Both the position numbers and the translations under genes were made by a program. From an uncultured Acidobacteriota bacterium (lineage in GTDB: Bacteria > Acidobacteriota > Thermoanaerobaculia > Multivoradales > UBA5704): DNA of 64,000 nt. Below are positions 2,566 through 64,000 of this stretch, piece after piece (position 1 is the first letter of the stretch; each line of letters opens with the position of its first letter). The notes below the pieces were generated by a model that saw only the letters and a list, made by a program, of their open reading frames with translations, did no database searches and was not told the DNA's origin. The stretch is taken from NCBI GenBank assembly GCA_963700145.1, contig OY969474.1:1664001-1728000 (forward strand), written 5' to 3'.

Positions 2566-2581
2566 CGAATCCTCCTTGGGA

Positions 2582-3004
2582 TCATGTGAGTTCCTCCTCG
2601 ATCACCCGCTCCCCTTCGCTCTCCCCGCGCGCCAGCCGCAGCCGCCGCGCCCCGGCGACCGGCCAGGGAAGCCGCTCCGGCCACTCCACCACCTTGACCC
2701 CGGGGCCGGCCAGCAGCTCCTCCAGCCCCAGCCCCGCCGCCTCGGCCGGCTCCAGGCGGTAGAGATCGACGTGCACGAGGCGCGCCCCGCCCGGGCCGGC
2801 GTGTTCGCGGATCAGCGTGAAGGTCGGCGAGGCGATCTCCCGCGGCGCGATCCCCAGCCCGCGCGCCACACCTTGCGCCAGCACCGTCTTGCCGCTCCCC
2901 AGGTCGCCGGCCAGGAGGAGCGTACCGTCCGGGGCCAGCTCGGCGGCGAGCGCCTCCCCCACCCTCCGGGTCTCCTCCTCCGACACGGTGCGCCAGCGTC
3001 TCAC
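2582..3004 (-). CDS. tsaE: tRNA threonylcarbamoyladenosine biosynthesis ATPase TsaE
   Basis: GDLGSGKT, SPTFTL, HVDLYRL, VEWPE. The GTG start overlaps the nnr stop. Confidence 0.93.
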   Translation of the reverse strand: MRRWRTVSEEETRRVGEALAAELAPDGTLLLAGDLGSGKTVLAQGVARGLGIAPREIASPTFTLIREHAGPGGARLVHVDLYRLEPAEAAGLGLEELLAGPGVKVVEWPERLPWPVAGARRLRLARGESEGERVIEEELT

Positions 3005-4563: not shown

Positions 4564-4585
4564 GGTCAGGACCCGCGGAGATGTC

Positions 4586-4622
4586 CCCCTCTCCCATGTG
4601 GGAGAGGGGCCAGGGGTGAGGG
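4586..4622. repeat. REP-like hairpin (CCCCTCTCCCA-TG-TGGGAGAGGGG...GGGGTGAGGG family)
   Basis: Perfect 11-bp stem followed by the GGGGTGAGGG tail typical of this dispersed palindrome family; intergenic. Confidence 0.7.
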
Positions 4623-4674
4623 AGATGGGATCAACGCAGGAAAGGTGGAAGCCTCTTGGATGCTCCCGTCAGGT

Positions 4675-5364
4675 TCAGCGGCCGCAGCCAACGAGAGGGT
4701 CCCTCTTAACCAGTCGATCCCAGGCCTCAAGGAGGCCCCGGGTCCGGGGGCAGCCCAGATCGCCGGCGGCCATCTCGGCGGCGAGGCGGCGGAGGTCGGC
4801 GGGGGTGTCCACGTCGGCGGCATGAGGCAGGAGCTCGACGGCGAGGCCGAGCTCGCGGCAGCGGTCGAGGGTGGCGGCGAGGACGCCGGCGGTGGACCAG
4901 GGGATCTCGCTGAAGAGGCGCGGGTCGAGGGCGGCGGCGCGCAGGGCGATGAGGTAGTAGCCGCCGTCTTCGGCGGGGCCGAGGACGACTTCGGCGCCGG
5001 CTTCTAGGCGCTCGAAGGCGCGGTGGACGAGGGGCAGGGGGAGGGTGGGGTGGTCGCTGCCGAGGGCGGCGACGAGGAGGGCCTCGCGGGCGGCGGCGGA
5101 GAGGGCGCGGTGGAGGCGGGCGCCTAGGTCATGGCCTTCCTGGCGGAGGCCGGGGACGGGGCCGGCGGGGAGGGGGTCACCGGGGTCGAGGTCCCAGGCT
5201 AGGCGGAGGTCGAAGTCGCCGGCGCTGAGGCGTTCCAGGAGATCGGCGAGGAAGGCGGCGTGGAGGTCGGCGGCTTCCTCGGGGCTAAGATCGCCGATTA
5301 GGCGGGTTTTGACTCGGCCGGGGCGGGCTGGCTTGGTGAAGAGAAGAAGGCGGCGGCCGGGCAC
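4675..5364 (-). CDS. TIGR04282/DUF2064-family glycosyltransferase-like protein
   Basis: LLLFTKPARPGRVKTRL, QEGHDLGARL, GSDHP, LGPAEDGGYYLI, DVDTPADL. TACAAT lies 6 nt before the GTG. Confidence 0.88.
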   Translation of the reverse strand: MPGRRLLLFTKPARPGRVKTRLIGDLSPEEAADLHAAFLADLLERLSAGDFDLRLAWDLDPGDPLPAGPVPGLRQEGHDLGARLHRALSAAAREALLVAALGSDHPTLPLPLVHRAFERLEAGAEVVLGPAEDGGYYLIALRAAALDPRLFSEIPWSTAGVLAATLDRCRELGLAVELLPHAADVDTPADLRRLAAEMAAGDLGCPRTRGLLEAWDRLVKRDPLVGCGR

Positions 5365-45548: not shown

Positions 45549-45651
45549 CCCAGATCCTTCGCTGCGCTGCGCTTCGCTCAGGATGACGTCGTTGGGTCGT
45601 GCGCGAAGATGGACCCACCATCGTCATCCTGAGCGTAGCGAAGGATCTGGG
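45549..45651. repeat. inverted pair of REP-like elements (REPIN/BIME-like)
   Basis: CCCAGATCCTTCGCTGCG...CTCAGGATGAC (45549-45587) and GTCATCCTGAGCGTAGCGAAGGATCTGGG (45623-45651). Confidence 0.8.
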
Positions 45652-46961
45652 CGGGGGGCGTGACGGGGCTCGTGCGTCGCGCCGCCCGCGGCAACGAGCG
45701 TCTCAGCGTCCGCGAGCAGCCGCCGGCGCAGCAGCTCCAGCGCGAGCTGGCTGGCCTGCCAGCGCACGCGCTCGCGGTCGCCGGGGAAGCGGACGCGGCG
45801 GTGACCGGGCGGGCCGTCAGGGCCGGCGATCGCCAAGTGCACGGTGCCGACCGGCTTCTCCTCGCTGCCGCCCCCCGGGCCAGCGACGCCGGTGACGCCG
45901 ATCCCGTAGTCGGCGCCGAGCCGCCCCCGCGCTCCTTCGGCCAGCGCCACCGCCACCGGCTCGGAGACCGCGCCGTGCGCGCGCAGCAGCTCGGCCGGCA
46001 CGCCGGCCAGCTCAGTCTTGAGGCGGTTGGTGTAAGCGACGACGCCCCCGACGAAGTAGTCGCTGCTGCCCGCGACCGCGGTCACCCGCTGCGCGACGAG
46101 CCCGCCGGTGCACGACTCGGCGACCGCCAGCGTGCGGCCGGCGCGGCGGAGGAGCTCCCCCACCACCCCTTCGAGCGTCTCCTCCTCGCCGCGCGCGAAG
46201 ACCGCATCGCCGGCCAGCTCGGCCAGCCGCTCCTGCATCGCCGCGAGCCGCGCGCGCCGCTCCGCCGGCGGGCCGGCGGCGGTCGCCAGCAGCCGGATCT
46301 CGCCGGGCTTGGCCAGGATGGTGATCGCCTCGCGCCCGAACTCGGCGTAGGCGGGGGCGATCCGCTCCTCGACCGCCGACTCCGGCAGGCACGCCACCTT
46401 GAGCACCGCCGTCTCCCTCCCGGCGCCGCCGGCGCGCGCCGCGAGCCACGGCTCGAGGTCGGCGGCAACCATCGCCTCCAGCTCGAACGGGACGCCGGGG
46501 AGGAGGAAAATCGTCGTCCCCTCGGCCTTCAGGCGCATGCCCGGCGCCGTACCGCGCGCGTTGGCGATCAGCTCCGCTCCCTCGATGACCTCCGCCTGCC
46601 GCTTGTTGACCTCCGGCATGCGCAGGCCGTGGTCGCAGAAGCGGGCGTCGATCCGCCGCAGCACGTCCGCGTCGAACGCCAGGCGGCGGCCGAGGGCAGC
46701 GGCGACCGCCTCGCGCGTGACGTCGTCGGCGGTGGGGCCGAGCCCGCCGGTCACGATGACCAGCTCGACCCGGCCGAGGAGGGCGCGCAGCTCGCGCCCG
46801 ATCTCCTCCTCGCTGTCGCCCACCACCGCCTTGCGCCGCAGCTCGAAGCCGTGGGCCTCGAAGGCGGCGGTCAGGCGCAGGGAGTTGGTGTCGAGCTGCT
46901 CCGTCCCCAGCAGCTCCGAGCCCACGGCCAGGACCGCCGCCGAGCGCGGGAGGGGGGGCAT
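45624..46961 (-). CDS. cinA: competence/damage-inducible protein CinA (MoCF-like + NMN deamidase)
   Basis: VGSELL..DTN, TGGLGPTADD, GTAPG, AESCTGG, HGAVS, TGVAGPGGG. Confidence 0.95.
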   Translation of the reverse strand: MPPLPRSAAVLAVGSELLGTEQLDTNSLRLTAAFEAHGFELRRKAVVGDSEEEIGRELRALLGRVELVIVTGGLGPTADDVTREAVAAALGRRLAFDADVLRRIDARFCDHGLRMPEVNKRQAEVIEGAELIANARGTAPGMRLKAEGTTIFLLPGVPFELEAMVAADLEPWLAARAGGAGRETAVLKVACLPESAVEERIAPAYAEFGREAITILAKPGEIRLLATAAGPPAERRARLAAMQERLAELAGDAVFARGEEETLEGVVGELLRRAGRTLAVAESCTGGLVAQRVTAVAGSSDYFVGGVVAYTNRLKTELAGVPAELLRAHGAVSEPVAVALAEGARGRLGADYGIGVTGVAGPGGGSEEKPVGTVHLAIAGPDGPPGHRRVRFPGDRERVRWQASQLALELLRRRLLADAETLVAAGGATHEPRHAPRPDPSLRSG

Positions 46962-47027
46962 GCCGGGATGATAGCGCGCGCTCCGAGACGACCGGCAAAC
47001 CGTGGCGCCGTAGTAGGATGTGCCGGA

Positions 47028-47834
47028 ATGCGCCGGTCGTTCGCCGCCCTCCTCCTCTTCTCCTGTGCAGCGCTCTTCGCGGTGGAGAGCTCTGGTCAGG
47101 AGATGGCTCGCGGCGAGGTCGAGCTGACCGCCCTCGCCGAGGTCCGCGAGGGCCGGATCGCCGCCGGGACGAGGCGGGAGAACGGCGGCACCGAGCTGGT
47201 CCTCTTCGCGGAGGAATCCGGCCGGATCTCCTCCCTGCCGGCCCCCGGCGGCCGCACCGGCAGGGCCCGCCACGACCCGCGGCTCCTCGTCGCGAATGGC
47301 GAGCTGGCCGCCCTCGCCTGGCTGGAGGGGCGCGACCTGCGCTCGCTCGCGGTCCGCTTCGCGCGCTGGGACGGCGAGGGCTGGGAGGCGCCGCGCACCG
47401 TCGCCGCGCCGGGGCCGGGTAGCCAGATGGCCCTCGCCGGCACGCGGCTCGCGGACGGCTCATGGCTGCTGGCCTGGAGCCGCTACGACGGCGGCGACGA
47501 CGAGGTCGTCTGGAGCCGCTCGGCGGGTCCCGACGGCGCCTCGTGGAGCGCGCCGCGGCGGATTGCCGCCGACAACGCGGTGCCCGACATCACCCCGGCC
47601 CTCTCCGCCGCCCCGGGCGGGGCGGTGGCCGCCTGGAGCCGCTACGACGGCGAGGACTACCGCGTGGTGACCGCCCGCTTCGACGGCCGCCGCTGGTCGG
47701 CGCCGCGCGTCGTCGGCCCGGCGGGGTCGCTGGAGCCGCGCTGGGAGCGGTCGGCGTCCGACGAGCCGGCGCTCGTCGTCCGCACCGTCCTGCCGCGCGG
47801 CCGGCTGACCATCCCCTGGCAGAGGGTGCGGTGA
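47028..47834 (+). CDS. hypothetical exported beta-rich protein
   Basis: Signal peptide; repeated AWSRYDG / WSAPR motifs. Confidence 0.7.
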   Translation: MRRSFAALLLFSCAALFAVESSGQEMARGEVELTALAEVREGRIAAGTRRENGGTELVLFAEESGRISSLPAPGGRTGRARHDPRLLVANGELAALAWLEGRDLRSLAVRFARWDGEGWEAPRTVAAPGPGSQMALAGTRLADGSWLLAWSRYDGGDDEVVWSRSAGPDGASWSAPRRIAADNAVPDITPALSAAPGGAVAAWSRYDGEDYRVVTARFDGRRWSAPRVVGPAGSLEPRWERSASDEPALVVRTVLPRGRLTIPWQRVR

Positions 47835-48970: not shown

Positions 48971-50259
<1,289 letters not shown>

Positions 50260-50300: not shown

Positions 50301-51041
50301 TCAGGTGCCGACGGTGAACGTCGTGTTGTCGGTGCCCACCTTCTGCTGCGCCAGCTGGCGGTAGGGCGAGCGCGGGTACTCGTCGAGGATGCGCTGGTAG
50401 GACTGCGTCGCTTCCTGCGTGCGGCCGAGCTGCTCGAGGGTCACCGCCAGCTCGTAGAGGACGACGTCCTGCGGCAGCGGCGGCTCGGGGTCTTCGAGCA
50501 GCGCCCGCAGCGCGGTCACCACCTCGTTCCCCTTCCCCTGGCTGCGGTCGAGGGCGATGAGGTTGAGCCGGGTCTCGCCGGCCAGGACGTGCCCGTCGTG
50601 ATCGTCGAGGAAGTCCTCCCAGAGCTTCCGCGCCTCGTCGAGCTTGCCCTCGGCGACGGCGATGTCGGCCAAGTAGAGCCCGGCCACGTCGGCGGCGTCG
50701 CTCCAAGGGTGGTCGTCGCGCACCGTCTCGAAGGCCGCCTTGGCGCGCGTCCGGCGCGCCGCCTCGGTGCCGAAGCTCGGAGCCTCGGGATCGTCCGGTT
50801 TGGGCGCCGCGGGATCGATCGGCGCCGCCGCGAGCTCCATCGCCTCGGCCAGCGCCGTGTTGGCCGCCTCGGAGCGCTGCCCCAGCCACACCCACACCCC
50901 GAGCCCCACCAGCGCCGCCGCCACCAGCGCGCCGACCCCCATGAGCAGGCCGCGCGAGTGGTGCTCGGCGTAATCGACGGTCGACTTGACCGCCGTCGCC
51001 AGCTCGTTCTTCTTCATCTCTTTGCGCGTCAGATGGCTCAT
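50301..51041 (-). CDS. YfgM-like membrane-anchored TPR protein
   Basis: LTRKEMK N-terminus, a single TM, and TPR-like helices. Confidence 0.8.
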   Translation of the reverse strand: MSHLTRKEMKKNELATAVKSTVDYAEHHSRGLLMGVGALVAAALVGLGVWVWLGQRSEAANTALAEAMELAAAPIDPAAPKPDDPEAPSFGTEAARRTRAKAAFETVRDDHPWSDAADVAGLYLADIAVAEGKLDEARKLWEDFLDDHDGHVLAGETRLNLIALDRSQGKGNEVVTALRALLEDPEPPLPQDVVLYELAVTLEQLGRTQEATQSYQRILDEYPRSPYRQLAQQKVGTDNTTFTVGT

Positions 51042-51198
51042 GCTGAATGTGCTCCGCGTCGTCGTTTTTGCGAGGGGGTGATCGCCGGCACCGGTGAGGG
51101 CAGTCGGAGGGGCGCCGGTACCAGTAACGGTAGCATCGGAGTGTGGCCGATGACAATGCTGGGGCGGCTGGCTGGGGTCGAGCTATGCTCAGGCACAG

Positions 51199-52944
51199 AT
51201 GGAAGCGCTGGTGATCACAGACGTGGAAGCAGCCCGCCGCGTGCTCCAGGTGAGGGGGCGCTACCACTACTATCTCGGCGCCGGGACATCCGCCGAGGCC
51301 GGCGTCCCGACCGCGCGCGAGATCTGCGACGAGATCAGAAGCGATTTGCTAGAGAAGGAGCTGCCGCTGCCGCGCACTGCAGAAGCTGTCGCAGTCTGGG
51401 AAAACGCGCGACTGCGGTGGGGCGATGCAGGACTTCGCTATTGCACTTGCATCTGCGCCAGCTATCCAAACCGGCCATCGCGAGTCGATTACTTCCGTAG
51501 CAAGGCCCAGAAGGTTGGCCCATCCTTCTGCCACCATGCCATTGCGCTCCTCATGACGCGCGGCGATATCCGATCGACGTGCTTGACCACGAATTTCGAC
51601 AAGCTCATCGAGAGCGCTTTCCTGAATCAAGGCGATCTCGAGTGCCAGGCGATCCGTACCGATGCAGAGCTCGAGTACTGGCAGTCTGCACCCAACAGGC
51701 CCTACGTGCTCAAGCTGCACGGCGACTACGACACGGGGAACGTCTTCAACACCGCTGACGAGACGATCGCTATCAGCGAAGCCATGACGGTCACCGTCAA
51801 GCGCCTACTACAGGCATCCGGCCTTCTCGTGCTGGGAACGGCGGGATACGAGAAGAGCATCCATACGCTGTTCGATCAGCTTGCGCGTGCCCATGACAAG
51901 GAGAACGTGCTCGCTTTCGGCCTCCTCTGGGGTGTGCACATGGGAGGGCCGAAGCCAAGCGAGAAACTCACCGTCCACCAGATTGCCGGGCAAGTACACG
52001 ACCGAATCGCGAGTGGAACCATCGGGCCGGATATCTTGAGCATGATGAAGCGGATGGCGCCGCGCAACGAATCGTTCGCTTTTTTCCCAGTCTGGGGGGC
52101 TGGAAACTTCCTCTTCGACCTCACACGGCAACTACGGGAGACGGACAAGTACTTGGCCGGGAGAGCAGAACTCTTCCTCGACCACGAGCAGCGGCTCCGA
52201 CACGTCTTCAGCCGCGCCGGCCTTTCTGACTCGGTCGTCGCCAAGCACCTCGAGTCGCTCAGGCGCCGGCGAAACGCGCCGCGATCGGCGAACGAGCGCT
52301 CCGGCGCCTGGGAAACGGTGCTGCGGGCGGCGAGCACATTGCTTCCCCTGGATGTCCGCTTCGTCTACGGCGACATCACCAGCCGCTCCCGGATGTCCGA
52401 AGTCGAGTTCCATGATCGGTACCGGGCCGTCGTTAGCCCGGAGGACACCTTGCTCAGCGCGGGCGGTGGTGTAGCCCTCACCTTGCTCGAGAAAGCGGGA
52501 CGCCACGGGATCCTTAACGAGCTCGCCAAGTTCTCTCCCATTCCCCAGACACAGGTCGCCGTGACCTCGGGCGGCCGCCTACCAGTGCACTATATTTTCC
52601 ACGCAGCCTCAGTCGCGGTGGAAAAGGACGGGGCCTATGACGCCTCGCAGGAGGCTGTCACCGCTACCATGGAGGCGGTCTTGCAAAGGACGGCGGCGCT
52701 CGACGTCGGCGTGCTCTTAGTCCCGCTGCTCGCGGCGGGTGTCGCGTCCCTCGACGGCCGGCACTCATTCGAGGCCATCCTGCGGGCCATCGCCGGCTGG
52801 TCCGCGACAACGCGGCCGTTGACGGTCGTGATCGTCTGCCGCCGCGAAGCCCAGCTTCCCCGCGGCATCGCCGAGGAAGTGCTCAGGCGACAGCTCGAGC
52901 CGAGCTTCGCATGCGAGCAAGTGGATTCCGGCGGCGACAATTAG
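51199..52944 (+). CDS. SIR2-like domain - Macro domain fusion protein
   Basis: SIR2 motifs YLGAGTS..AGVPT, TTNFD, LKLHGD. Macro motifs VYGDIT, AVVSPEDTLLSAGGGV, VTSGGRLPVHYIFHA, VPLLAAGV. TATGCT lies 9 nt before the ATG. Confidence 0.85.
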   Translation: MEALVITDVEAARRVLQVRGRYHYYLGAGTSAEAGVPTAREICDEIRSDLLEKELPLPRTAEAVAVWENARLRWGDAGLRYCTCICASYPNRPSRVDYFRSKAQKVGPSFCHHAIALLMTRGDIRSTCLTTNFDKLIESAFLNQGDLECQAIRTDAELEYWQSAPNRPYVLKLHGDYDTGNVFNTADETIAISEAMTVTVKRLLQASGLLVLGTAGYEKSIHTLFDQLARAHDKENVLAFGLLWGVHMGGPKPSEKLTVHQIAGQVHDRIASGTIGPDILSMMKRMAPRNESFAFFPVWGAGNFLFDLTRQLRETDKYLAGRAELFLDHEQRLRHVFSRAGLSDSVVAKHLESLRRRRNAPRSANERSGAWETVLRAASTLLPLDVRFVYGDITSRSRMSEVEFHDRYRAVVSPEDTLLSAGGGVALTLLEKAGRHGILNELAKFSPIPQTQVAVTSGGRLPVHYIFHAASVAVEKDGAYDASQEAVTATMEAVLQRTAALDVGVLLVPLLAAGVASLDGRHSFEAILRAIAGWSATTRPLTVVIVCRREAQLPRGIAEEVLRRQLEPSFACEQVDSGGDN

Positions 52945-52990
52945 GCTTGCCGGGGCATACTGGTCTTCCGGGGGGCTCCGAGGAGGCCGG

Positions 52991-53935
52991 TTACAACGCC
53001 TTTGCCTTCATCGTCATGCGGTCGGTGCGCACTCGGTCGGCGGCGGCGATCGTGCGGGACCACTCGACCGCGCGCGGCCAACCCGTCTTGGTGTCCATCG
53101 TGTAGGTGGCCCGGTCGCGGATGTCGAGGGTCGGCATCTCCGCGTCCGTGGGCCCGCCATCGGGCATCAGGCGGCGGAGGATGGCGGCGATCGCCGCGCT
53201 CGCCTTCTCCCGGTCGATCTCCTGCTGCCAGGCGATGACGGCCTCGTCGCGCTCGGGCCGGTGCTCCTGCAGCAGGAAGCTCCCCTTGCTCGGGAAGGGG
53301 TCGCCGCCGAACGGGTTGGGAAGGGCGTCAGCGTACTCGACCGTCTCGCCCACCGCCAGCGCGGCGCCGCAGACGAAGTAGAAGACTTGCGCCGAGCGCA
53401 GCAGCAGGCTCTCGACGACCTCGGGCTTGGTCATCATCGCGACTACCTCGGACACCGCCGGCGCCGGCGGCTCGCCCTGCTTCCCCTTGAACAGCTCGTC
53501 GAGCACCCGCTTGAAGACGGCGACGGCCTCGTCGCGGTTCAGCAGCCGCTGCGGCACGCCCGTCTCGTCGGTCTGCATGACCAGGCTCAGGTCGCCGGCG
53601 ACCTCCTGCAGGCGCTCCGTCGAGACCGGCAGCCGGCCCTGCGCGACCTCGTCGAGCCAGCCGGCGCTGTAGGTCCAGACGAAGACGTAGCCCTGCCGGT
53701 TCCGCGCCTTCACCCTCGCCTCCAGGATGCTGCGGCTGGTTCCCGCCGGCGTCTCCTTGCCGCCGGCGGCGTCGATGCGCTCCTTGACGACCTCGAGGCG
53801 CAGCGTCTCGCCGACCTTCCAGTCGGTCGGCAGCTCGACGACCGCCGGCTCGGGCTCGGGTTGGGCGGCCGCGGCGGCGGAAGACAGCAGGAGAAAGAGC
53901 GCCCAGCGGGCGGTCGCAGGCCTATGGAATTCCAT
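52991..53935 (-). CDS. hypothetical exported protein
   Basis: Signal-like [15 protein letters not shown]; high-GC3 coding frame; the start overlaps the giant gene's end. Confidence 0.7.
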
Positions 53936-56900
53936 CGAGCTCCATCGGCGTGAGGAGATTGAAGTAGACGAATTCGGCGAGAGCGCGGCCGCTTGCCAGT
54001 CCCAGCTGGTTGTCGTACTGCCAATGGATGCCGCCGTAAATCCTGCTCTGTCCCGCCTCCTCGCTGGCGGTGGAGAGGCGAGTGAACGAGCGCTGCACTC
54101 CTGGCAAACCGTCCGAGCTCGTCGTGAAGGAGATCTTGTCGGTGCCGAAGAACAGTTCCAGCAACCGGGCGGACGAGCCGCTGAAGGTGCTGTGGCCGGA
54201 GGTATAGGTTGGGAACGGCGGTGTCGTGATGAAGGACGTCCAGCCGGCATCGGCCGCGGTATCCGGGTTGCCGTCGGTGTCAGCCATCTGGATGGCCGTC
54301 ACGGGGCGCCAATGGCTGTAATAGTACTTGTGGTCCCAGGAGACGATGGCCGCGTCGGCGCTGGTAGCGGCGAGCAGTGCAAACAGCCGTGCGTTCTCGA
54401 TCAGGCTGAGGCCCCGCGCTCGGGAGATGCCCTGCGCGATGACATGCCAGTGGCCGGGCGGTGTGGCGGTGCCGGGACCGTCCGCCCAGAACAACGCGAT
54501 CTCGGACTGCTCGCGGGTGCGGTGTCGACTGTCGACCCCCCCGAGCCGCTTCACCTCACGGAACGATCTCGTGTACTCCGAGCTGGCCATGGAGGGCGGC
54601 GGACGCTGCCGGAACTGAGCTGGATGAGCCATGGCCCAGGGCCGCACGTGGCGCCAGTGCGGCAGCAGAGCCGAGGAGAACCCGGGCGACGTCGGCAGCC
54701 ACCAGCTCGGCCCGATCGGGGCCTCGTAGTCGACGGTCTTGTCCGCATTGTCCTTGAGGCGCGCCGCCAGGATCTTTAGTGCCACCATCCGTCCCCACGC
54801 GATCGAGGAGCTTTCCGATGGGCCATCCGGGATGGCGGCCAGGGACGACGCCAGAGCGGAATTCAACGTGGCCTTTTGCGCCGGGAACAGGTGGATCAGA
54901 ACCTTGTGGGCGGCCGCGGCGGCTGCGATCTCGGGCGAGATCGGAGAAATGAGCTGGATGGGCGCCACGAGATAGGGGGTGTACATCCCGCCGGTGGCGC
55001 CGTTCACCGCGTCGAAGATCGCGGTGTGGACGTACGCAAGGGCCCGGCTCGCGCGTGGCGGGTCCGTCCTGTCGACCCGGATGGCTCCCAGGGTCACATT
55101 GTTCCAATCGACCACCATGTCCCCGCGGCGAGGCACCCGCACATCGCCGGACAGCCCGTCGCCGTCGTTGTCCGGATCGACATTGCGGTCGACCTCTTTC
55201 TCGACCCGGAGATCACCGAGCAGGACAGAGGCGCTCGCGGGTACCATGAAGTTCACGATCCGCGGGAGGTCCTCCGCCGAGATCTGAGCCAGCGCCGACC
55301 CTCTCAGCAAGGCCAGCGCCTGGGCCGCGGCCACCGCGGTGACTCGGTCGGGGCTCTGCGCGGCGAAGTGCATCAGGATCGCCTGTCCGCCGGCCGGCAC
55401 CGTGACCCGGTACTCGAGTCTGAGCACGCCGTCCGCGGTGAGCGAAGCCGTCATCGGCTGTACCGCCGCCGCTCCCCCGGAGAAGGCGAACGCCAGAGCC
55501 GGCTCGGTACTTTCCGTGGTGTCGTCGGTGGCCAGCCAGTCATCCATCGTGCTCAGCACCAGATCGCCGCTCGAGCTGCTGAGCACGACGGTATCGGTAC
55601 TCGAGCTCAAGTAGGACAGAACCGTCACGACGGCAGTCGTGCTGACGCTGTCCGGGTTGTCCAAGACCTCGAGGTACCGCACCAGACCGTCGTCCTCCGG
55701 CACGTAGACCTTGCGCGTCACGCGCAGGCCGGAATCGGTCCAGGGCCCGATCTCCAGCTCGCGTCGGTTCTTGCGCAGCGTCCCGGTCTCGAACTGCGGG
55801 AAGGACGATCCGTTCACCGCCAACTCGAAGGCGCCGAAGAAGGCGACGTCGCTGCCGCTGTTGATCCCGCCCGTCCGCATGACGTCCCAGAGATAGTTGT
55901 CCCCGTCGGCCAACTCATACGGCAGGTCGACCGCGAAGACGTCGTTGGACGGGTCGCGCGGGTCGCGGCCGGCGGCGATCTCCGAGCCGTCCTTCTCACC
56001 TCCCCCGTCGGTATCCGCCGCCAGTGGATCGGTACCGTGGACCTCGATCTCGTCACCGTCCGGGAGCGCGTCGCCGTCGGTATCGGCCTTGGTTGGGTTG
56101 GTGCCGAGTGTGGGGTCGATCTCGTACTCGGCCTCGGCCTGGCCGTTACCGAACACTAAGGGGGCGACCGCGGGTACCACGAAGTTGACGATCCGCGGGC
56201 GGTCCTCTGACGAGATCTGCGCCAGCGCCGACCCGTTCAACGAGGCCAGCGTCTGGGCCGCGGCCAAGGCGGTCGTGCGGTCGTGGTTCTGCGTCGCGAG
56301 ATGCATCAGGATCGCCCGTCCGCCGGCCGGCACCGTGAGCTGGAACTCGAGGGCAAGCTCACCGTCCGAGGTCAGGGAAGCCGTGATCGGCTGGACTGCC
56401 GCTCCCGCGGCGGAGAAGGCAAACGCCAGAGCTGGTGTCCCGGTGCCGTCCGCGGCATCGTCGGTGGCCAGCCAGTCGTCGGCCGCGCTCGCCACGAGGT
56501 CCCCACTCGAGCTGCCGAGCACCGTGGTGTCGGTGAACGAGCCCAGGGACGAGACGAGATTGACGATGACGGTGGCGCTCGCCGTGCCGGGATTGTCGAA
56601 TACCTCGAGGTAGCGCACCAAGCCGTCGTCCTCCGGCACGAACATCTTCCGCGTCACCCGCACGTTGGAGGCGGTCCACGGCCCGACCTCGAGCTCACGC
56701 CGGTTCCGGCGCAGCGTCCCGGTGTCGAAGGCTGGGAAGAACGAGCCGTTGACCGCCAGCTCGAAGGCGCTCGAAAAGGCGCCGTCGGTCCCGTTGCCGA
56801 CGCCGCCGGTGTGCCACACGTCCCAGAGGTAGCCCTCGCCATCGGTCAGCGTGTAAGGCAGGCCGACCGCGAAGACATCGTCGGTCGGATCGAGCGGGTT

Positions 56901-59900
56901 CCTGCCGGCGGCGATCTCGGAGCCGTCCTTCTCGCCGCCGCCGTCGGTGTCCGCGTTCAGCGGATCGGTGCCGTGGACCTCGATCTCATCGCCATCGGCG
57001 AGCGCATCGCCGTCGGTATCCGCCTTGGTCGGATCGGTGCCGCGTGTGTGCACCTCTTCACCATCGGTGAGCCGGTCGTCGTCGGTGTCGGCATCCGCCG
57101 GGTCGGTTCCGTTCTGGCGCTCCTCGCCGAGGGTGAGACCATCTCCATCGACGTCGGCGTTGCCGTCGGCCGCGTTCTTCGGGTCGAGACCGTTGGCGAT
57201 CTCGTAGCCGTCGGAAAGCAGGTCGCCGTCAGTGTCCAGCTTGTTCGGATCGGTGCCGTAGACGGCAATCTCGTCGCGGTCGGTCAGGCCGTCACCGTCG
57301 GTGTCCATCAGGGTCGGATCGGTCCCGTGCTGATGGACCTCGTCGCCATCGGAGAGCCCATCACCGTCGGTGTCCGGGGCGAAGGGGTCGCTCCCCGCCT
57401 CTTCCTCGTCGGCATTGGTCAGGCCGTCGCCGTCCTCGTCGCGTGCGCCGTCGGCGGCGTTCTTCGGATCGAAGCCGTTGAAGACCTCGTAGCCGTCCGG
57501 CATACCGTCGTCGTCGGTGTCGGGGTCGCGGCGGTCGGTGCCGCGCGCGTTCTCGTCGCGGTTGGGCAGGCGGTCGCCGTCACCGTCCGGGTTGAGCGTC
57601 GAGAGCATCAGGGTGTGCTGGGAGCTCACCCCCGCTTTCACCCAGGGCACCCGTACCGTGCCGAAGCGGACCGCGGGCGCGGCGACGGCGTTGCCGAACC
57701 CGTTGAACCGCGATGTCGGCCAGTCGGCGACCGGCTGCAGCGGCACGACCTCGGAGCCGTCCGCGCGCAGCCCGCGGGCGAAGAGCGCCGCCAGGCCGTC
57801 CGGGTCGGGCTCGGTCCAGGTCAGCGTGGCGAGACCCGGCTCGAACGCCGCCGCCGGCTTGCTCGCCGGGGCTGGGAGCGCCGGCGTCACCTGGATCGGA
57901 CCGGCCACGGTGATCGCGGCGAGGTCGGCGGCATCGCCGTCGCGGTCGTCGTGGGCCGGGTCGATGGTGAGCCGGAAGGCCTCCGCGTCGGCGCCGCCCC
58001 GCAGGAATACGAGGTCGAGCCGGCCGCCAGCGGCCAAGCCGAGCGACGGGTAGCCGACGGCGGACCCGCCGCCGGGCGTCAGGTCGGTGGCGTCGATGCG
58101 CGTCACGCCGCTCGCCCCGTCGAGCATCCAGTAGAAGACCGAAGTCGCGGCGATGCGCGCGGTGGCGGCGACGTGCAAGTCGCCGCCGGCATCGACTGCC
58201 AGCGCCGGCTGGCTGAACTGATTGGTCCCAGTGCCGGTCAGCAGGACGCGCTCGGGTTGAGCGACCGTGCCGTCCGCCGCCACGTGAGCGTAGCGGACCA
58301 CTTCGGTCGAGTTGAAGAAGCCGCCGACGTTGCGCCAGACCAGATGGGCGTCGCCCGCGGCGCCGGCCGCCATGCCGAGCCGCGTGGACTGCCCCTGGGC
58401 GTTGCTCGACACCGTGAGGGCCGGGGCGGCGGTGATCGCCGCCAGCGCGGCGGGCGATCCGTCGCGATCGTCGAGATACGGATCGATCCGCAGGTAACGG
58501 ATCGCGGAGGGATCGATCCAGGCGACATGGACCCGGCCGAGCGCGTCGGCGTTGACCACCGGATGCACCGGGTCGGCGCAGCCGTCCGCGGTGAGCGGCG
58601 TGTCGCCGATCAGGGTGACGCCCGCCGGCGAGAGCATGCGATAGACGAGGGCGTCGCAGAAGCTCTGCGAGAGCCGCTCGCTCCATACCAGGTGCACGTT
58701 CCCCGCCCCGTCGACCGCGGCGACCGGCTCGGCGAGGTCGGTGGCGGTCCGCACCGCGAGCGGCAGAACCTCGTCGACCGGGTCGCGCGGGTCGGTGCCG
58801 TCGAACTGCACCTCGGCGCCGTCGCCGCGGCCGCCGCCGTCGCTGTCGGAGAGGCGAGGATCGGTGCCGTGGGTGCCAACCTCCGCGCCGTCGCCCAAGC
58901 CGTCGCCGTCGGTGTCGGCCCTCAGCGGATCGGTGCCCGCCGCGATCTCGACGCCGTCCGTCAACCCGTCGCCATCGGTGTCGGCGGCGCGCAGATTAGT
59001 ACCGCGGTCGCGCTCCTGGCCGTCCGAGACGCCGTCGCCGTCGCTGTCCGCCGCCGGGTCGTTCGCCACCTTGGGATCCATCCCGTTGGCGACCTCGAAG
59101 CCGTCGTCGAAGCCGTCGTCGTCGCTGTCGGCGTCGGCCGGGTTCGTGCCCAGGGCGGTCTCCTCCTCGTCCGCGAGCTTGTCGTCGTCGGTGTCGAGCC
59201 GAGCGAAGAAGTTGCGGATCTCGCGCCGCTCGGCCGAGGTGAGCCCCGCCTCGGCGACGCCTTGGAGGTCGGCGAGGGCCGCCGCCGCCGCCGCGGCCTG
59301 CTCGCGCGTCGTCCGCTGCGCGCCGAAGTGCAGCAGGACCACCCGCTGCCCCGCCGGCACGGTGACGTCGAAGCGCACGGTCATCTGCGGCCCGAGCTTC
59401 TGCACCGCCGACGGGCGGAGCGGCTCGAGCGAGTCGGCATGGACGAAGACGACCGGCGGGTTGACCGCGGCCTGCGAGTCGTCCAGAACCACCCAGTCGT
59501 CGGCCGCTGTCGCCCAGCGGTCGCCGTCGGAGCTCGCCATGACGAGGCTCTGTCCGTCCACCTCGTGGCGCAGCACCACCGCGGCGGTCACGTCCGCCGC
59601 CGTCGGGTTGCGCAGGATCTCGAGGTAGCGGACGAAGGCGTCGCCGCTCGGCACGAAGACCTTCCGCCGCACCTCGAGCCCGCCGCCCGTCGTCCACGGT
59701 CCGAACGCCAGCGTCCGCTCGTCGCGCATCAGCGAGGCGGAGGTGAAGCTCGGGAAGTCGGCGCCGTCGACCTCGAGCTGCAGCGCCGGCCCGAACGACC
59801 CCGAGGACGAGCCGCTCGAGCTGGCGCCGTCAGGCTGCACGTTCCAGCGGAAGCCGCCGGCGTCGATCAGCTGATAGCCGAGCGGGATCGGGAAGCTGTC

Positions 59901-62900
59901 GTCGTCGGCGAACAGCGGGTTGGTCCCCTCCCCCACCTCGTTGCCGTCGGTCTGGCCGCCACGGTCGGTGTCCGCCACCTTGGGCTGCGTGTGATGGACG
60001 TTCACTTCCTCGCCGTCGGTCAACCCGTCGGCGTCGGTGTCCCGGGCGAGCGGGTTGGTGGTGTGCGTGCGCACCTCGGCGCCGTCGGTCAAGCCGTCGC
60101 CGTCGGTGTCGGGCTTCGTCGGATCGGTGCCCAGGTTGCCTTCTTCGACGTTGCTCAGGCCGTCGCCGTCGTCGTCGGCGCCGCCGTCGCTCGGGTCGAG
60201 CGGATCGAGGCCGTTGGCGACCTCGAAGCCGTCGGAGACGCCGTCGTCGTCGGTGTCGGGGTCGAGCGGCTGCGTGCCGTGGACGTTGACCTCGGCGCCG
60301 TCGGTCAAGCCGTCCTGGTCGCTGTCGGCGCTCTTGGGGTCGGTGCCGAGCGCGGCTTCCTGGCCGTCGTCGAGGCCGTCGAGATCGACGTCGGCGATCG
60401 TCGGATCGGTGCCGCGCGTCCGCTCGTCGAGGTTGGTCAAGCCGTCGCCGTCGGCGTCCAGGCCGGCATCGGCGGCATTCAGCGGGTCGAGGCCGTAGCC
60501 GACCTCGTAGCCGTCCGGCAGGCGGTCGTCGTCGCTGTCGGCGTCGTTCGGGTTGGTGCCCAGGAGCAGCTCCTGCCCGTCGGAGAGGCCGTCGCCGTCG
60601 GCGTCGGCCCGGCCGTCCGTCGGGTCGAGCGGATCGAGCCCGTGGCCGGCTTCGTAGTCGTCCGAATAGCCGTCGCCGTCGGTGTCGGCCCGGGTCGGAT
60701 CGGTGCCGAGAGCGAACTCCTCGCCGTCGTTCAGGCCATCGCCGTCGCTGTCGATCTCGCCGTCGGCGGGGTCGAGCGGGTCGAGCCCTCGATCCACCTC
60801 GTACTTGTCGGGCAGGCCGTCGCCGTCAGTGTCGCGGTTCAGCGGATCGGTGCCGAGCGCGCCTTCCTCCTCATCGGAGAGCCCGTCGTCGTCGCTGTCC
60901 GGCGGCGCGGCGAAGTTGACGATGTCGCGCGCCTCTTCCGGCGAGAGGCCGGACTTCGCCGCGCCGCGGAGGGCCTCGAGATCGCCCGCGGTCGCCAGCG
61001 CCGTCGCCCTCAGGCCGGCCTGGGAAGCGAAGTGCATCAGGGCCGCTCGCCGGAAGGGCTGCACGGTCACGTCGAAGGTGAGGGTGACGGCGTCGCCGAT
61101 CAGCGACGCCGAGAACGGCTGCAGGCGCGCGCCCGGACCGGCGAAGGCGTGCACGATCGACGGTGCCGAGAAAGCGGACTCGCTGAAGTCGTCGGTGACC
61201 ACCCAGCGGTCGGCGAAGCCGAGCACCTGGTCGCCGTTGGAGGTCGCCACGGTTTGGGTGCAGCAGGAGTCGGAGCCCAGGTTGGTGAGGATCTGGACGC
61301 GCACCGTCACCGGGTTGGCGGTCGGATTCTCGAAGAGCTCGAGGAAGCGGGCGAAGCCGTCGTTCTCGGGCACGAAGACCTTGCGGTTGATGATCAGACC
61401 GTTGAAGGTGCCCGGGCCGATCAACAGCTCCCGGCCGCCGTTCTCGGGGATCGCCGTCGTCGAGCCGCCGAAGTCGAGGCTGCCGCCGAGCCGCAGGCGC
61501 AGGCCGTCGTCGAAGGCGTTGCTGGTGCCGTCGAAGATCCTGCCGTTGGTCTGGATGTCCCAGGAGAAGCCGTCGCCGTCCTTGAGCGTCCGCGGCAGCG
61601 ACAGCCGGTCGTCGCTCGCCGACAGCGGGTTCCTGCCCTGGGAGACCTCCTCGCCGTCGGTCTGGCCGCCGCCGTCGGTGTCGCGCGCCGTCGGATCGGT
61701 GTGATGGACCTCGACCTCCGCGAGGTCCGTCAGGCCGTCGCGGTCGGTGTCGGCGACGAACGGGTCGGTGCCGTGCACCAGCACTTCGTCGCCGTCGGAG
61801 AGGCCGTCGCCCTCGGTGTCGGCAGCGGCGAGGTCGGTGCCGGCGAGCTGCTCGCCGGCGTTGTCCAGGCCGTCGCCGTCGAGGTCGCCGGCTCCGTCCG
61901 CCGGGTCGAGCGGGTCGAGGCCGTGCCGCACCTCGTTGCCGTCGAGGACGCGGTCGCCGTCGGTGTCGGCGACGAGGGGATCGGTCCCGTAGACGCCCGT
62001 CTCATCGGCGTCGCTGAGGCCGTCCTTGTCGGCATCGGGCAGCGCCAGGAAGTTGACGATGTCCACGCGCTCTTCGGGCGTCAGCTCGGCCAGCGCCGAG
62101 CCGGCCAGGTTGTCGAGCTGCCCCACGATCGCGACCGCAGACGGCAGGGTCGCGGTCGCCGCGGCAAAGTGCATCAGGATCACCCGACCGCCAGGCGGTA
62201 CCGTCACGCGATAGGTGAACGAAAGCGTAGCGAGATCGAGGGCCACCTGAGAGGGGCGCAGACGGCCGGTCGAACCGGCGAAGACGTGAATGGATCGGGT
62301 ACTCGATCCACTCCAATCGGTGACGACCGAGCGATCCTCCAGGGTGACGAGCGCGTCTCCGCTCGACGTGCTCGCGGCCTGCGTCGCCGCGCCGCTGGAG
62401 AGCGACGTCGCCAGCTTGACTTCGGCCTCGATCGCCTCCCCGGTCGGGTTCTCCAGAACCTCCAGGAAGCGCACGAAACGATCGTCCGCGGGCACGAACA
62501 CCTTCCGGCTCACCTTGAGCCCGTTGCGGTCCCAGGGGCCGATCACCAGCTCGCGCTGACCGGCTTCCGTGCTGGCCTTCGCGAAGTTGGGGAACAGGGT
62601 GCCGGAGAGGCGCAGCGCGAGGCCGGAGGCGGTCATGAAACCACCGCTGATCCTCCCATCCTGCTGGACGCTCCATGAGGATCCGCCGCCGTCGGTCAGG
62701 CTTCGCGGCAACGACACCGCATCGTCGGCGGCACTGAGCGGGTTCTTCCCCTCGCTCACCTCGGCACCGTCCGCCTGGCCGCCGCCGTCGGTGTCGGCCT
62801 TGAGCGGATCCGTGCCGTGCGTCGAGACCTCGGCGCCGTCGGACAAGCCGTCCGCGTCGGAGTCGGCGGCCTTGGGCTTGGTCCCGTGAACGTTCACCTC

Positions 62901-64000
62901 GGCGCCGTCGTTGAGCCCGTCGTCGTCGGTGTCGGGATCGGAGATGTCCGTGCCGGCGGCCTCCTCGGCGGCGTTGGAGAGGCCGTCGCCGTCGCGGTCC
63001 GCGGCGCCGTCGGCGGCGGCGAGCGGATCGAGGCCGTTGGCCACCTCGCTGCCGTCCTGGATGCCATCGCCGTCCGTATCCGGGTTGTTCGGATCGGTGC
63101 CCCGCGCCGTCTCGTCGGCGTCCGACAGGCCGTCGGCGTCGGCGTCGGGGTAGGCGAAGAAGTTGGCGATGTCCGCCTGCTCGTCCGGCGTCAGCCCAAG
63201 AAGCGTCGAGCCCCGCAGCCGCATGAGGTCGGGCGCCTTGAAGACCGCCGAAGCGCGGACCTTGTTCTGGGCCCCGAAGTGCATCAGGACGACGCGCTCG
63301 CCCGGCTGCAGGACGAAGAGGTAGCGGAAGACGAACGTCCCGCTGCTGCTCAGAGAGATCGTGGAGGGACGAAGACGTCCGCCCGGGCCGGCCCAGACAT
63401 GGGTCACCGCCGGGTTGCCGAAGGAGGTGCCGTCGCCGCTGTCGTCGGTGACGACCCAGTCGTCGTCGAGGCCCAGAACCCCATCCACGCTCGATTCGCG
63501 GATCAGCCGCGTTCCCGTCTCCGAACCGAGATCCGTCTTGATCTCCGCCGTGACGACGTGCGGGTTGGCGTCGTTGTTCTCGAAGATCTCGAGATAGCGG
63601 ATGAAGCGGTCGTCGGCCGGCACGAAGACCTTCCGCCGCACCTCCAGCCCGTCGTTGGTGTGCCAGGGCCCGAGCGTGAGCTGCCGGCCGCCGATCGTCG
63701 TCAGCGCTTCGGCGAAGAAGGGGAAGCCCTGGTTGTTGACCCCGAGCTGGAAACCACCCTGTCGCAGGCTGTGGAAGGCGCCGCTGTCACCGACGCGGAT
63801 GCGGCCGTTCTGCTGCACGTCCCACTTGAGGCCGCCGCCGTCGAAGAGGTTCAGGGGCAGGGCGATCGCCGTCGCGTCGTCGGCCGGATCGAGCGGGTTC
63901 GTCTCGTCGCGGAAGAGCTCGTCGCCGTCCTTGCGGCCGCCGCCGTCGGTGTCGGCGCGGGCCGGGTGCGTGCCGTGGACCGCGACTTCCACGCCGTCCG
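53922..64000 (-). CDS. giant (>3,350 aa, 5'-truncated by the window) protein: TSP3-like Ca-binding repeats, six ~220-aa repeated domains, a beta-propeller-like region, and a C-terminal vanadium haloperoxidase/PAP2 domain
   Basis: Dozens of DTDGDGLxDGxE..GTDP repeats. The C-terminus has [17 protein letters not shown] and [12 protein letters not shown]. Confidence 0.88.

Follow-up and report, generated by a model that had tools for sequence, protein, structure and literature searches.

Can one bacterial protein that joins a SIR2-type enzyme to a Macro domain act by itself as an effector that destroys nicotinamide adenine dinucleotide (NAD+)? This question is raised by a 581-amino acid (aa) protein, hereafter SIR2-Macro, encoded in a stretch of 64,000 nucleotides (nt) from an uncultured Acidobacteriota bacterium (G000:C1:1664001-1728000; this whole stretch is referred to as the window, and its genome as G000). 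An initial annotation, made from the letters of the window, had proposed a single-gene defence system combining the sensor of type II Thoeris with the effector of type I. The reading that we prefer, to which the sequence gives somewhat less than an even chance, is that SIR2-Macro is an autonomous NAD+-consuming conflict effector gated by its own Macro domain. The gene itself is a horizontally acquired, usually monocistronic unit.

SIR2-Macro is encoded by an ATG-started, stop-free open reading frame (ORF), is present in a single copy in G000 and has the following parts (window coordinates):

51199..52944, plus strand: SIR2-Macro gene (P0001), from the ORF and its translation, Pfam SIR2_2 and Macro matches and the AlphaFold2 model
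51199..51939, plus strand: SIR2_2 Rossmann domain, residues ~1-247, from Pfam, the PADLOC pAgo-associated SIR2 model and the SPARSA Sir2 profile match
51277-51291, plus strand: GAGTS NAD-binding motif, within the SIR2_2 domain
51586-51600, plus strand: TTNFD with N132 and D134, within the SIR2_2 domain
51712-51726, plus strand: KLHGD with H174, within the SIR2_2 domain
51940..52293, plus strand: alpha/beta-helical linker, residues ~248-365, with conserved columns, confidently modelled and without a Pfam family of its own
52312..52923, plus strand: Macro domain, residues ~372-575, from Pfam, the 2dx6 profile match and Foldseek
52435-52446, plus strand: SPED, Macro domain motif
52462-52473, plus strand: GGGV, Macro domain motif
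52735-52749, plus strand: AGVAS, Macro domain motif

The Pfam model SIR2_2 (PF13289) aligned to residues 128-234 (E 6.4e-11, 43 bits, cut-off 24.5) and the Macro model (PF01661) to residues 416-521 (E 6.7e-10, 39.4 bits, cut-off 22). The canonical SIR2 family PF02146 stayed below its cut-off (16.4 bits vs. 24), and NCBIfam gave sub-threshold matches alone, to ADP-ribose-binding macro proteins and to CobB (CobB models E 0.065-0.17). All three SIR2 motifs are present (GAGTS at residues 27-31, TTNFD at 130-134, KLHGD at 172-176), and N132, D134, H174 and the GxGxS loop (G27, G29) are kept, as expected of a SIR2_2 member. The Macro half retains the motifs that contact ADP-ribose (ADPR), namely GDIT (391-394), GGGV (422-425), the TSGG of VTSGG (455-459) and the GxG loop, and carries SPED at 413-416 and AGVAS at 513-517. 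The linker is marked by GLLWGV, FFPVWG and LDHEMRLR. Modelled with the family alignment in AlphaFold2, the chain reached a mean predicted local distance difference test score of 93.6 and a predicted template modelling score of 0.91; the latter, taken over the whole chain, implies that in the model the SIR2 part, the helical linker and the Macro domain are held in a fixed arrangement. The N-terminal 370 residues form a confidently modelled SIR2 fold that was read as soluble from the model rather than from a transmembrane predictor. The ORF, the defence-type SIR2 N-terminus and the C-terminal Macro domain described in the initial annotation are thereby borne out, and both domains proved real and conserved.

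The PADLOC models that matched the SIR2 half were the pAgo-associated SIR2 (Aga_SIR2, 3.7e-28), PDC-S65 (6.8e-23) and, weakly, ThsA (4.6e-5). They cover residues ~12-267 only, no PADLOC model matches the Macro half at E <= 1, and no described system was matched over the full length. A family profile searched against the PDB matched the Sir2 of SPARSA best (8jkz/8in8, E 1.4e-16, residues 1-246), followed by KomC (2.3e-5), ThsA (7uxt, 2.7e-4), DSR2 (3.1e-3) and FAM118B (3.2e-3); the 60 profile matches listed include no canonical sirtuin. Foldseek likewise placed the SIR2 half close to SPARSA (8y80_E, 3.6e-14), ThsA (8bto, 7uxt) and KomC (9v12). Because of these sequence and fold matches, and because PF02146 is below its cut-off, we group the SIR2 half with the defence NADases (SPARSA SIR2-APAZ, ThsA, KomC, DSR2), which it resembles, and not with CobB.

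The closest PDB entry to the Macro half is TTHA0132 (2dx6; profile E 1.3e-21, TM 0.85, 31% identity; the macro fold and the Pfam score thus both identify the domain), followed by macroH2A1.1 (TM 0.83), a non-catalytic ADPR binder, and Af1521. No solved structure matched both halves in Foldseek. In the alignment with TTHA0132, S413 stands at the first Asn of NAAN and D416 at the second, and the sequence continues as D416-x6-GGV-A427, L431. The MacroD hydrolase motif reads N-x6-GG[VLI]-D followed by His; the positions that we take to be those of the catalytic Asp and His are occupied here by Ala427 and Leu431.

A word-indexed search of 5.8 billion proteins returned 226 matches to SIR2-Macro. The 120 matches listed all combine SIR2_2 and Macro, most of them at 560-605 aa and a few at 480-549 aa, and among those listed identity to the query does not exceed 54%. 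An exhaustive search of 1.84 billion representatives at 50% identity found 87 proteins at E <= 1e-30, many of which are fragments on short contigs. The corresponding ESM Atlas cluster has 85 members and is named 'Macro/SIR2-like domain-containing protein', and the automatic family name at JGI is 'O-acetyl-ADP-ribose deacetylase / NAD-dependent SIR2 family protein deacetylase'. Since databases already annotate the SIR2 and Macro architecture, the fusion as such is not new. The nearest SIR2 relatives outside the family among the 50%-identity representatives (515-1232 aa) match residues ~5-260 only, so that, as in DSR-like proteins, what follows the N-terminal SIR2 varies.

An alignment of 114 members showed G27, G29, N132, F133, D134, K172, H174, G175, D176 and Y390 to be invariant, together with S413, G424, T456, S457, H468 and G514 in the Macro half; D392, D416 and G422/G423 are conserved in at least 90% of the members. 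S-P-[ED]-D replaces the usual NAAN, with E or D always at the third position in a 25-sequence alignment, and because S413 and D416 are conserved across the 114 members we regard it as the family signature of SIR2-Macro proteins. The replacement of NAAN by SPED and of the aromatic loop by AGVAS, both already noticed in the initial annotation, is thus family-wide and not local decay. The SIR2 region contains one family-conserved cysteine, C84 (besides C43), and therefore no four-Cys zinc module, which agrees with the lack of CobB-type zinc-finger cysteine pairs noted earlier.

A pattern scan of 185,579 species, with one genome each, yielded 114 stretches encoding relatives. Full-length loci numbered 13 among the best 80 stretches, which were kept (L001-L013), and full-length fusions are accordingly rare. 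According to the record titles these loci belong to at least eight phyla (Gemmatimonadota, Acidobacteriota, Verrucomicrobiota, Thermodesulfobacteriota, Chloroflexota, Bacteroidota, Actinomycetota and Planctomycetota) and one unclassified metagenome-assembled genome (MAG). Together with 38 full-length loci from a metagenome scan they make up 51 related loci. Neighbours in the metagenome loci were examined with hidden Markov models (HMMs) of our own for Nudix and TIR and by BLAST clustering, and those in the genome loci with Pfam and PADLOC. The literature searched, to which supplementary tables do not belong, held no account of the SIR2-Macro fusion as a system or of its function, and it describes neither the unit, nor its horizontal mobility, nor its tie to an ADPR pyrophosphatase (ADPRase) locus. 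The sole trace found was in PMC12700824, where the legend of a figure names 'Macro' as one of the domains that occur fused to SIR2_2 proteins.

The gene is called foreign or accessory because of a drop in GC content (GC) and in GC at third codon positions (GC3), its place in a strain-specific insertion (described below), its absence from relatives and its patchy distribution over phyla. Its GC3 is 0.78 vs. 0.90-0.97 for the neighbouring genes taken as real, which confirms the excess of A/T-ending codons that had been noticed at the outset, and GC in the window is 0.60-0.67 across the gene vs. 0.73-0.80 upstream of it (about 0.75). In 10 of the 13 genome loci the GC of SIR2-Macro falls short of that of the remaining locus, the difference ranging from 0.013 to 0.133, and in the genome loci the gene is often the lone plus-strand one amid minus-strand genes. 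No full-length copy was present in 40 relatives of G000 (4 of the same genus, 20 of the same family, 16 of the same order), which gave weak single-domain matches only, and no family member was found at E <= 1e-30 in relatives of G041, G043 and G044 (0/20 each). In total, 100 of 100 relatives over four lineages were without full-length SIR2-Macro; these relatives are samples, and some are incomplete MAGs. Given this absence, the patchiness and the foreign composition, inheritance does not appear vertical. Direct repeats of 44-55 bp flank SIR2-Macro in L129 and L141. Those in L141 (1018-1072 and 3115-3169; 55 bp, 89% identical) may mark the borders of a cassette.

The -10 box ascribed to the gene in the initial annotation could not be reproduced: scans of 50950-53150 for sigma-70 promoters and for terminators yielded no promoter-like and no terminator-like site, and the box is therefore unconfirmed.

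The strongest contextual signal came from an all-against-all BLASTP comparison of the called neighbours, in which one family recurred across unrelated loci: a ~200-aa protein that is the immediate neighbour of SIR2-Macro in 6 of the 13 genome loci. A cluster of ECF sigma factors in three loci follows shared flanking synteny. All six recurrent neighbours are NUDIX proteins (Pfam), their best NCBIfam matches are the ADP-ribose/ADP-sugar pyrophosphatases NudE, YffH/AdpP and NudF, and two of them exceed the TIGR00052 cut-off. An HMM built from the six detected Nudix within 300 bp of SIR2-Macro in 15 of the 38 metagenome loci and never farther away, which brings the adjacency to 21/51 related loci (~40%), to 19/44 after dropping seven near-identical duplicates (L120, L127, L128, L140, L144, L145, L146) and to 12/28 where at least 800 bp were available on both sides. 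Since five host genomes of 4.5-8.4 Mb contain only 4-16 NUDIX matches each, the chance of such adjacency is well below 1% per gene. Nudix lies downstream on the same strand in 9 loci, upstream on the same strand in 2, divergently in 6 and convergently in 4 (L110 and L134, with Nudix matches on both sides, being counted twice). The enzyme of NAD salvage NAMPT was found directly downstream on the same strand in L012, the sole NAMPT in the 51 loci.

In three tested lineages Nudix is a resident core gene and not a travelling partner. Relatives of G041 (L013) keep Nudix and a Mur ligase 72-1400 bp apart without SIR2-Macro, as seen in seven relatives with both flanks on one contig; two of these gaps were read and contain an SLT-like exported protein (G054) and a pilin-like protein (G050) (L189, L191), so that the slot between Nudix and Mur ligase is variable. 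Relatives of G043 (L004) keep Nudix-TatC without SIR2-Macro, and relatives of G044 (L001) keep a Nudix with transmembrane segments (TM-Nudix), which in one relative, G061 (flagged unpublished), is followed after 212 bp by the same SAM_HAT gene. This TM-Nudix (L001:8411-9853) is an ADPRase fused to a ~285-aa N-terminus with multiple transmembrane segments and a weak SLATT match (E 7.3e-4, below cut-off), and the fusion is kept in relatives lacking SIR2-Macro.

By flanking synteny three groups were distinguished, A with ECF sigma, Nudix and M16 peptidases, B like L013 and C with Nudix-TatC. SIR2-Macro proteins inside these groups are 37-66% identical, and in a quick IQ-TREE search of the family group A fell in at least three places split by well-supported branches; one slot therefore hosts distantly related alleles. 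Four Nudix-linked loci carry a second, partial and diverged Nudix on the opposite side of SIR2-Macro (L110 and L134 by HMM, L117 and L114 by BLASTN), the copies in L110 (1-351 and 2188-2601) being 67% identical in nt sequence over 290 bp. The second copies suggest that Nudix sequence moves along with SIR2-Macro or serves as its target. The adjacency may reflect selection that keeps the gene linked to the disposal of ADPR, a mode of transfer by which Nudix is dragged along or targeted, or both, and it fits a defence role as well as one in NAD turnover.

A TIR partner, by comparison, is a rare neighbour. In G000, 27 TIR_2 stretches score above the Pfam cut-off; a distance of 252 kb separates SIR2-Macro from the nearest of them, so the statement that no TIR gene stands beside it holds. 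It is unusual that G000 is without any TIGR00052 ADP-ribose pyrophosphatase, a family matched in 13 of 14 control genomes. An HMM built from 21 G000 stretches, which in a control recovered the 27 G000 matches and may miss divergent TIRs, detected TIR in 2 of the 51 related loci, adjacent in L129 and 6.7 kb off in L005. In L129 a 293-aa TIR protein (4431-5312) is convergent with SIR2-Macro (2195-3898) and lies ~530 bp downstream, which could be a true Thoeris-like pairing; searches of PDB sequences with this TIR protein and with its neighbour gave no match. The same region (L129:1500-6600), comprising SIR2-Macro, TIR and a 337-aa ORF, is a patch of low GC (~0.50 vs. 0.56-0.61), and the direct repeats around SIR2-Macro in this locus measure 44 bp and are 91% identical. 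With TIR adjacent in one of 51 loci, the picture of a type II sensor coupled to a type I effector loses its expected partner.

How would such a protein act? As in its closest characterised relatives, the intact SIR2_2 domain would consume NAD+, most likely as an NAD+ glycohydrolase yielding ADP-ribose and nicotinamide, and the Macro domain would bind an ADP-ribose-type ligand and thereby control or process the action of SIR2. SIR2-Macro would then be a self-contained effector of the anti-phage or abortive-infection type, in which Macro keeps the NADase off until a ligand containing ADPR is bound (candidates are ADPR in free form, a derivative of it made by TIR, or a molecule that carries ADP-ribose), upon which NAD+ would be depleted. 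A host ADP-ribose pyrophosphatase that removes ADPR could set the threshold of activation or make the loss of NAD hard to reverse. We infer the NADase chemistry from the NADase relatives and the intact N, D and H residues, and the gating from the fixed two-domain architecture, the conserved ADPR-contact motifs and the precedent of type II Thoeris; the defence role and the role of Nudix are likewise put forward as possible interpretations. Activation of SIR2 effectors by assembly is described in the available part of a recent report (10.64898/2026.03.01.708072), and another, as far as its available text goes, describes aRES, by which bacteria alter the fate of NAD fragments to beat the phage system NARP1 (10.64898/2026.01.28.702374).

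Several observations weigh against an autonomous conflict effector. SIR2-Macro has no dedicated phage-sensing domain, and the two conserved acidic residues of S-P-[ED]-D could, judging from the alignments, form a catalytic rather than a mere binding pocket. PADLOC, run on 88 neighbours (drawn from the 13 genome loci, at most four genes to either side of SIR2-Macro, with output that is not locus-resolved), gave matches to 57 models at E <= 1e-5, none in more than three proteins; LmuA, SngC, BrxHI, DpdJ, Avs1a, mad2/3 and generic helicase, TPR and subtilase models were single cases, and no defence system recurs among these neighbours, nor is enrichment in defence islands seen. Next to SIR2-Macro, the 13 genome loci have mostly housekeeping genes or genes of unlabelled family (TrmD, TonB-type outer-membrane protein, LysE, LysR, Mur ligase, TatC, methyltransferases). 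G000 has neither an adjacent Nudix nor a TIGR00052-type ADPRase anywhere in the genome, for which 13 of 14 control genomes were positive. The Nudix partner is resident core and kept in relatives without SIR2-Macro, which is at least as compatible with a link to metabolism as with one to defence, and NAMPT in L012 points to NAD salvage. The initial interpretation is thus partly supported: the two domains and the NADase-type SIR2 stand and the gene proves to be horizontally acquired, but neither a TIR partner nor a defence-island context is supported.

A bolder version, which we consider doubtful, makes the gene a self-amplifying NAD switch: the Macro domain would read the product of its own SIR2 (ADPR or a close derivative), a small trigger would lead to runaway destruction of NAD+, and the resident ADPRase would serve as the brake that determines the threshold. 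The destruction of ADPR would also deny phage NARP1 its substrate, and the cassette would move between phyla and land repeatedly beside the ADPRase gene, sometimes leaving the second partial Nudix on the other side that is seen in L110, L134, L117 and L114.

Three rival explanations were considered. The first, which is unlikely, places a writer and an eraser on one chain: SIR2 would ADP-ribosylate a protein, a nucleic acid or a small molecule, Macro would remove the mark as a built-in antidote or reset, and Nudix would clear the ADPR, with SIR2 chemistry like that of SirTM. A linkage of sirtuin and macrodomain, the latter reversing ADP-ribosylation, is the hallmark of SirTM in the text available of two reports (PMC8120803, PMC4518038). 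The two acidic residues of S-P-[ED]-D, which occur near the distal-ribose site in 25 of 25 aligned members, could be catalytic, and in the model the two domains are rigidly packed. The SIR2 half is however SIR2_2 and not class M, keeps H174 where SirTM has Gln, lacks a zinc motif and GcvH-L/LplA neighbours, and has NADases as its closest relatives. In the Macro half, the residues after GGGV that would presumably correspond to the catalytic Asp and His of MacroD are Ala and Leu.

The second rival, a regulatory or NAD-turnover enzyme, is still less favoured and quite improbable. SIR2 would deacylate a substrate or cleave NAD slowly, Macro would turn O-acyl-ADPR into ADPR, Nudix would convert ADPR to AMP and ribose-5-phosphate and NAMPT would recycle the nicotinamide, so that the whole would be a pathway for the disposal of by-products. 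It could account for an ADPRase-type Nudix within 300 bp in 21/51 loci, about half of which have it on the same strand, for NAMPT downstream in L012 and for the housekeeping surroundings, and it matches the deacetylase name given by JGI. It is harder to reconcile with a protein that has no zinc or substrate-binding module of deacylases, a PF02146 score below cut-off and no canonical sirtuin among its listed PDB matches. Such a rare and patchy family (13 full-length loci in the best 80 stretches, 0/100 relatives in four lineages), with foreign composition and distantly related alleles in the same slot, would also be atypical for a housekeeping enzyme.

The third, a Thoeris-like effector acting in trans as in the initial picture but with an unlinked sensor, in which TIR proteins encoded elsewhere in G000 make an ADPR-derived signal that Macro reads so that the SIR2 NADase fires, is very improbable: the 27 TIR_2 stretches of G000, the low-GC TIR neighbour in L129 and the binding of ADPR and IAD by the Macro domains of type II ThsA (available text of PMC11204291) are countered by TIR adjacency in a single locus of 51 (divergent TIRs aside), by the 252 kb to the nearest TIR in G000, by known Thoeris sensors and effectors being operon partners and by a Macro half without a PADLOC match. 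The probability left by the preferred reading and these three rivals belongs to something else.

SIR2 NADases form one of the major classes of immune effector in bacteria, and to our knowledge every characterised one is fired by something else, be it a TIR signal via SLOG, an Argonaute, HerA or a long sensor arm. If SIR2-Macro is indeed a conflict effector, a 581-aa SIR2 with an ADPR-binding Macro alone would be the most compact SIR2 immune effector known, and the product of NAD cleavage or an ADP-ribosyl mark would possibly itself be the trigger. The repeated adjacency of ADPRase ties an accessory gene that consumes NAD to the core metabolism of ADPR in a concrete way that can be tested, and bears on the arms race over phage reconstitution of NAD+ from ADPR that the available text of 10.64898/2026.01.28.702374 describes. 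If the protein is a writer and eraser or a turnover enzyme instead, it would still establish what an uncharacterised branch of SIR2_2 and an S-P-[ED]-D subclass of Macro do biochemically.

The position of the gene in G000 was determined by BLASTN against genomes of the same genus. Their homology to G000 stops at window 51043-51065, the start codon of a TPR gene, and resumes at window coordinates 87605-88305 after 150-200 bp in G004, G002 and G003; the G001 contig continues instead with 1.5 kb matching nothing in G000. Because homology ends and resumes at these points, G000 carries a strain-specific insertion of ~36.5 kb relative to G002, G003 and G004, of which SIR2-Macro is the first gene. 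The parts around SIR2-Macro that fall in the window are:

50301..51041, minus strand: TPR_21/YfgM-like TPR gene (Pfam), the last conserved core gene before the insertion
51044..64000, no strand: in-window part of the insertion (BLASTN synteny), which runs on to 87604 outside the window and is absent from G002, G003 and G004
51044..51198, no strand: left insertion border and SIR2-Macro upstream region, from the end of same-genus homology and the GC drop
52991..53935, minus strand: exported protein of an unlabelled family, with a signal-peptide-like N-terminus after the probable start M106; the ORF is open to 54250
53922..64000, minus strand: 3' part of the gene for a 6983-aa TSP3-repeat/PAP2 surface protein (Pfam TSP3_bac, 22 stretches, and PAP2), continuing to 74873

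The initial annotation had the gene sitting alone between a TPR gene and an exported-protein gene. Both neighbours were found as described (TPR at 50301-51041, the signal-peptide-like ORF at 52991-54250, both on the minus strand), and the gene does stand alone as regards them, though not as the first gene of a 36.5-kb insertion. The TPR gene is 80-96% identical at the nt level in the same-genus genomes. The exported-protein ORF (52991-54250, minus strand) has no Pfam or NCBIfam match and, convergent with SIR2-Macro, is probably the last gene of the operon for the giant protein.

A tRNA-Arg(CCT) is found at the G004 junction and, in G000, at window coordinates 82389-82465; the extra DNA therefore consists of two blocks flanking this tRNA. 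In the left block (51044-82388) SIR2-Macro is on the plus strand and the rest on the minus strand, namely the exported protein, the 6983-aa TSP3-repeat/PAP2 protein, a 183-aa ORF, a tRNA-Ser(GGA)-like element and a 2036-aa CBM96/Ig/PKD protein. In the right block are a TPR-CHAT protein of 1105 aa (CHAT match at E 1.2e-72), an ORF of 158 aa and a 395-aa member of the caspase family, located at L102:12507-17441 (window coordinates 82507-87441, outside the window). The TPR-CHAT and caspase-family genes beside tRNA-Arg may form a protease-based conflict module; a CHAT homologue is also present ~1.6 kb from SIR2-Macro in L008. The giant island genes have a host-like GC3 of 0.86-0.93 (0.93 in the 6983-aa gene) and SIR2-Macro has the lowest GC of the block; it probably arrived separately.

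No integrase domain was found in the island ORFs scanned, three of which are without a Pfam match. The left junction showed no direct repeat derived from tRNA-Arg (best local score 19 vs. a shuffle mean of 18.1), and around the G000 SIR2-Macro there are no significant flanking repeats and no Nudix remnant beside the gene. The tRNA-Ser(GGA)-like element (92 nt, anticodon at position 31 by ARAGORN; L102:5942-6033, window coordinates 75942-76033) may be the tRNA-like vestige of a former integration site; the normal tRNA-Ser(GGA) is at G000 3459721-3459810.

About 4 kb upstream of SIR2-Macro (window 45624-47273, minus strand) is a gene for CinA, with a COG1058-type MoCF domain, KH and CinA/PncC. 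The text available on CinA describes an NAD-recycling enzyme with ADPR pyrophosphatase activity, composed of COG1058 and PncC (PMC3680494, PMC4246079). It was rejected as a partner: because it is a conserved core gene, and present in 0/51 related loci, its proximity is probably a coincidence. At window 48971-49001 G004 has ~3.3 kb of extra sequence between the GDSL-lipase/dockerin and pyrimidine-nucleoside phosphorylase genes, which G000 lacks.

It remains to place SIR2-Macro among the systems already described. It is not a CobB-type deacylase (PF02146 at 16.4 bits vs. 24, no conserved Cys pairs), and the residues at the presumed catalytic positions, Ala427 and Leu431, keep it apart from the MacroD-type hydrolases. 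Nor does it belong with DSR1/DSR2, proteins of ~1000 aa with a long helical sensor as against 581 aa here, of which the DSR2 chains 8wkt/8k98 match residues 125-229 only (E 3.1e-3). TTHA0132 of Thermus thermophilus (2dx6), deposited as 'hypothetical', shares the GxGVxxL loop without an aromatic residue and differs as a stand-alone, single-domain Macro protein that keeps the canonical NAAN in place of S-P-[ED]-D. The PADLOC candidate PDC-S65 is likewise a single-gene SIR2 (profile of 592 positions), and residues 12-213 of SIR2-Macro match its positions 23-227, but the remaining ~365 positions do not match; the literature search found no paper mentioning it.

With SirTM our protein shares a sirtuin-fold enzyme functionally tied to a macrodomain. 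The class M sirtuins of the available text of PMC8120803 have the catalytic His replaced by Gln, a zinc site and an operon with GcvH-L, a lipoate ligase and a Zn-macrodomain, whereas SIR2-Macro has an invariant H174, no conserved Cys cluster and unrelated neighbours (the TPR gene and the exported protein), and is thus no SirTM. SPARSA SIR2-APAZ provides the closest SIR2 domain by sequence and fold; SIR2-Macro differs from it in having no APAZ region or Argonaute neighbour and a Macro domain as its C-terminal half, and the Aga_SIR2/pAgo models align to residues ~21-267 only, which excludes it from the SPARSA/pAgo group.

The two types of Thoeris each share one half of the design. In type II (TM-Macro), as in SIR2-Macro, a Macro domain is the ligand-binding module fused to the effector, and the available text of PMC11204291 reports that this Macro binds ADPR/IAD without hydrolysis and oligomerises upon binding. 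The effector of SIR2-Macro, by contrast, is a SIR2 fold (soluble in the model) that is N-terminal to Macro instead of a transmembrane part, and there is no adjacent TIR, so it is not a type II member. Type I membership is excluded by a C-terminal half that is Macro and not SLOG, the sensor of type I ThsA, and by the lack of an adjacent TIR (ThsB) here and in 49 of the 51 related loci; the PADLOC similarity to ThsA is confined to the catalytic core (residues 127-179). Both proteins nevertheless have an N-terminal NAD-consuming domain of the SIR2_2 type and a C-terminal nucleotide-binding domain on one chain, and by this analogy SIR2-Macro would work most like ThsA, as a SIR2 effector and a nucleotide sensor joined in a single protein.

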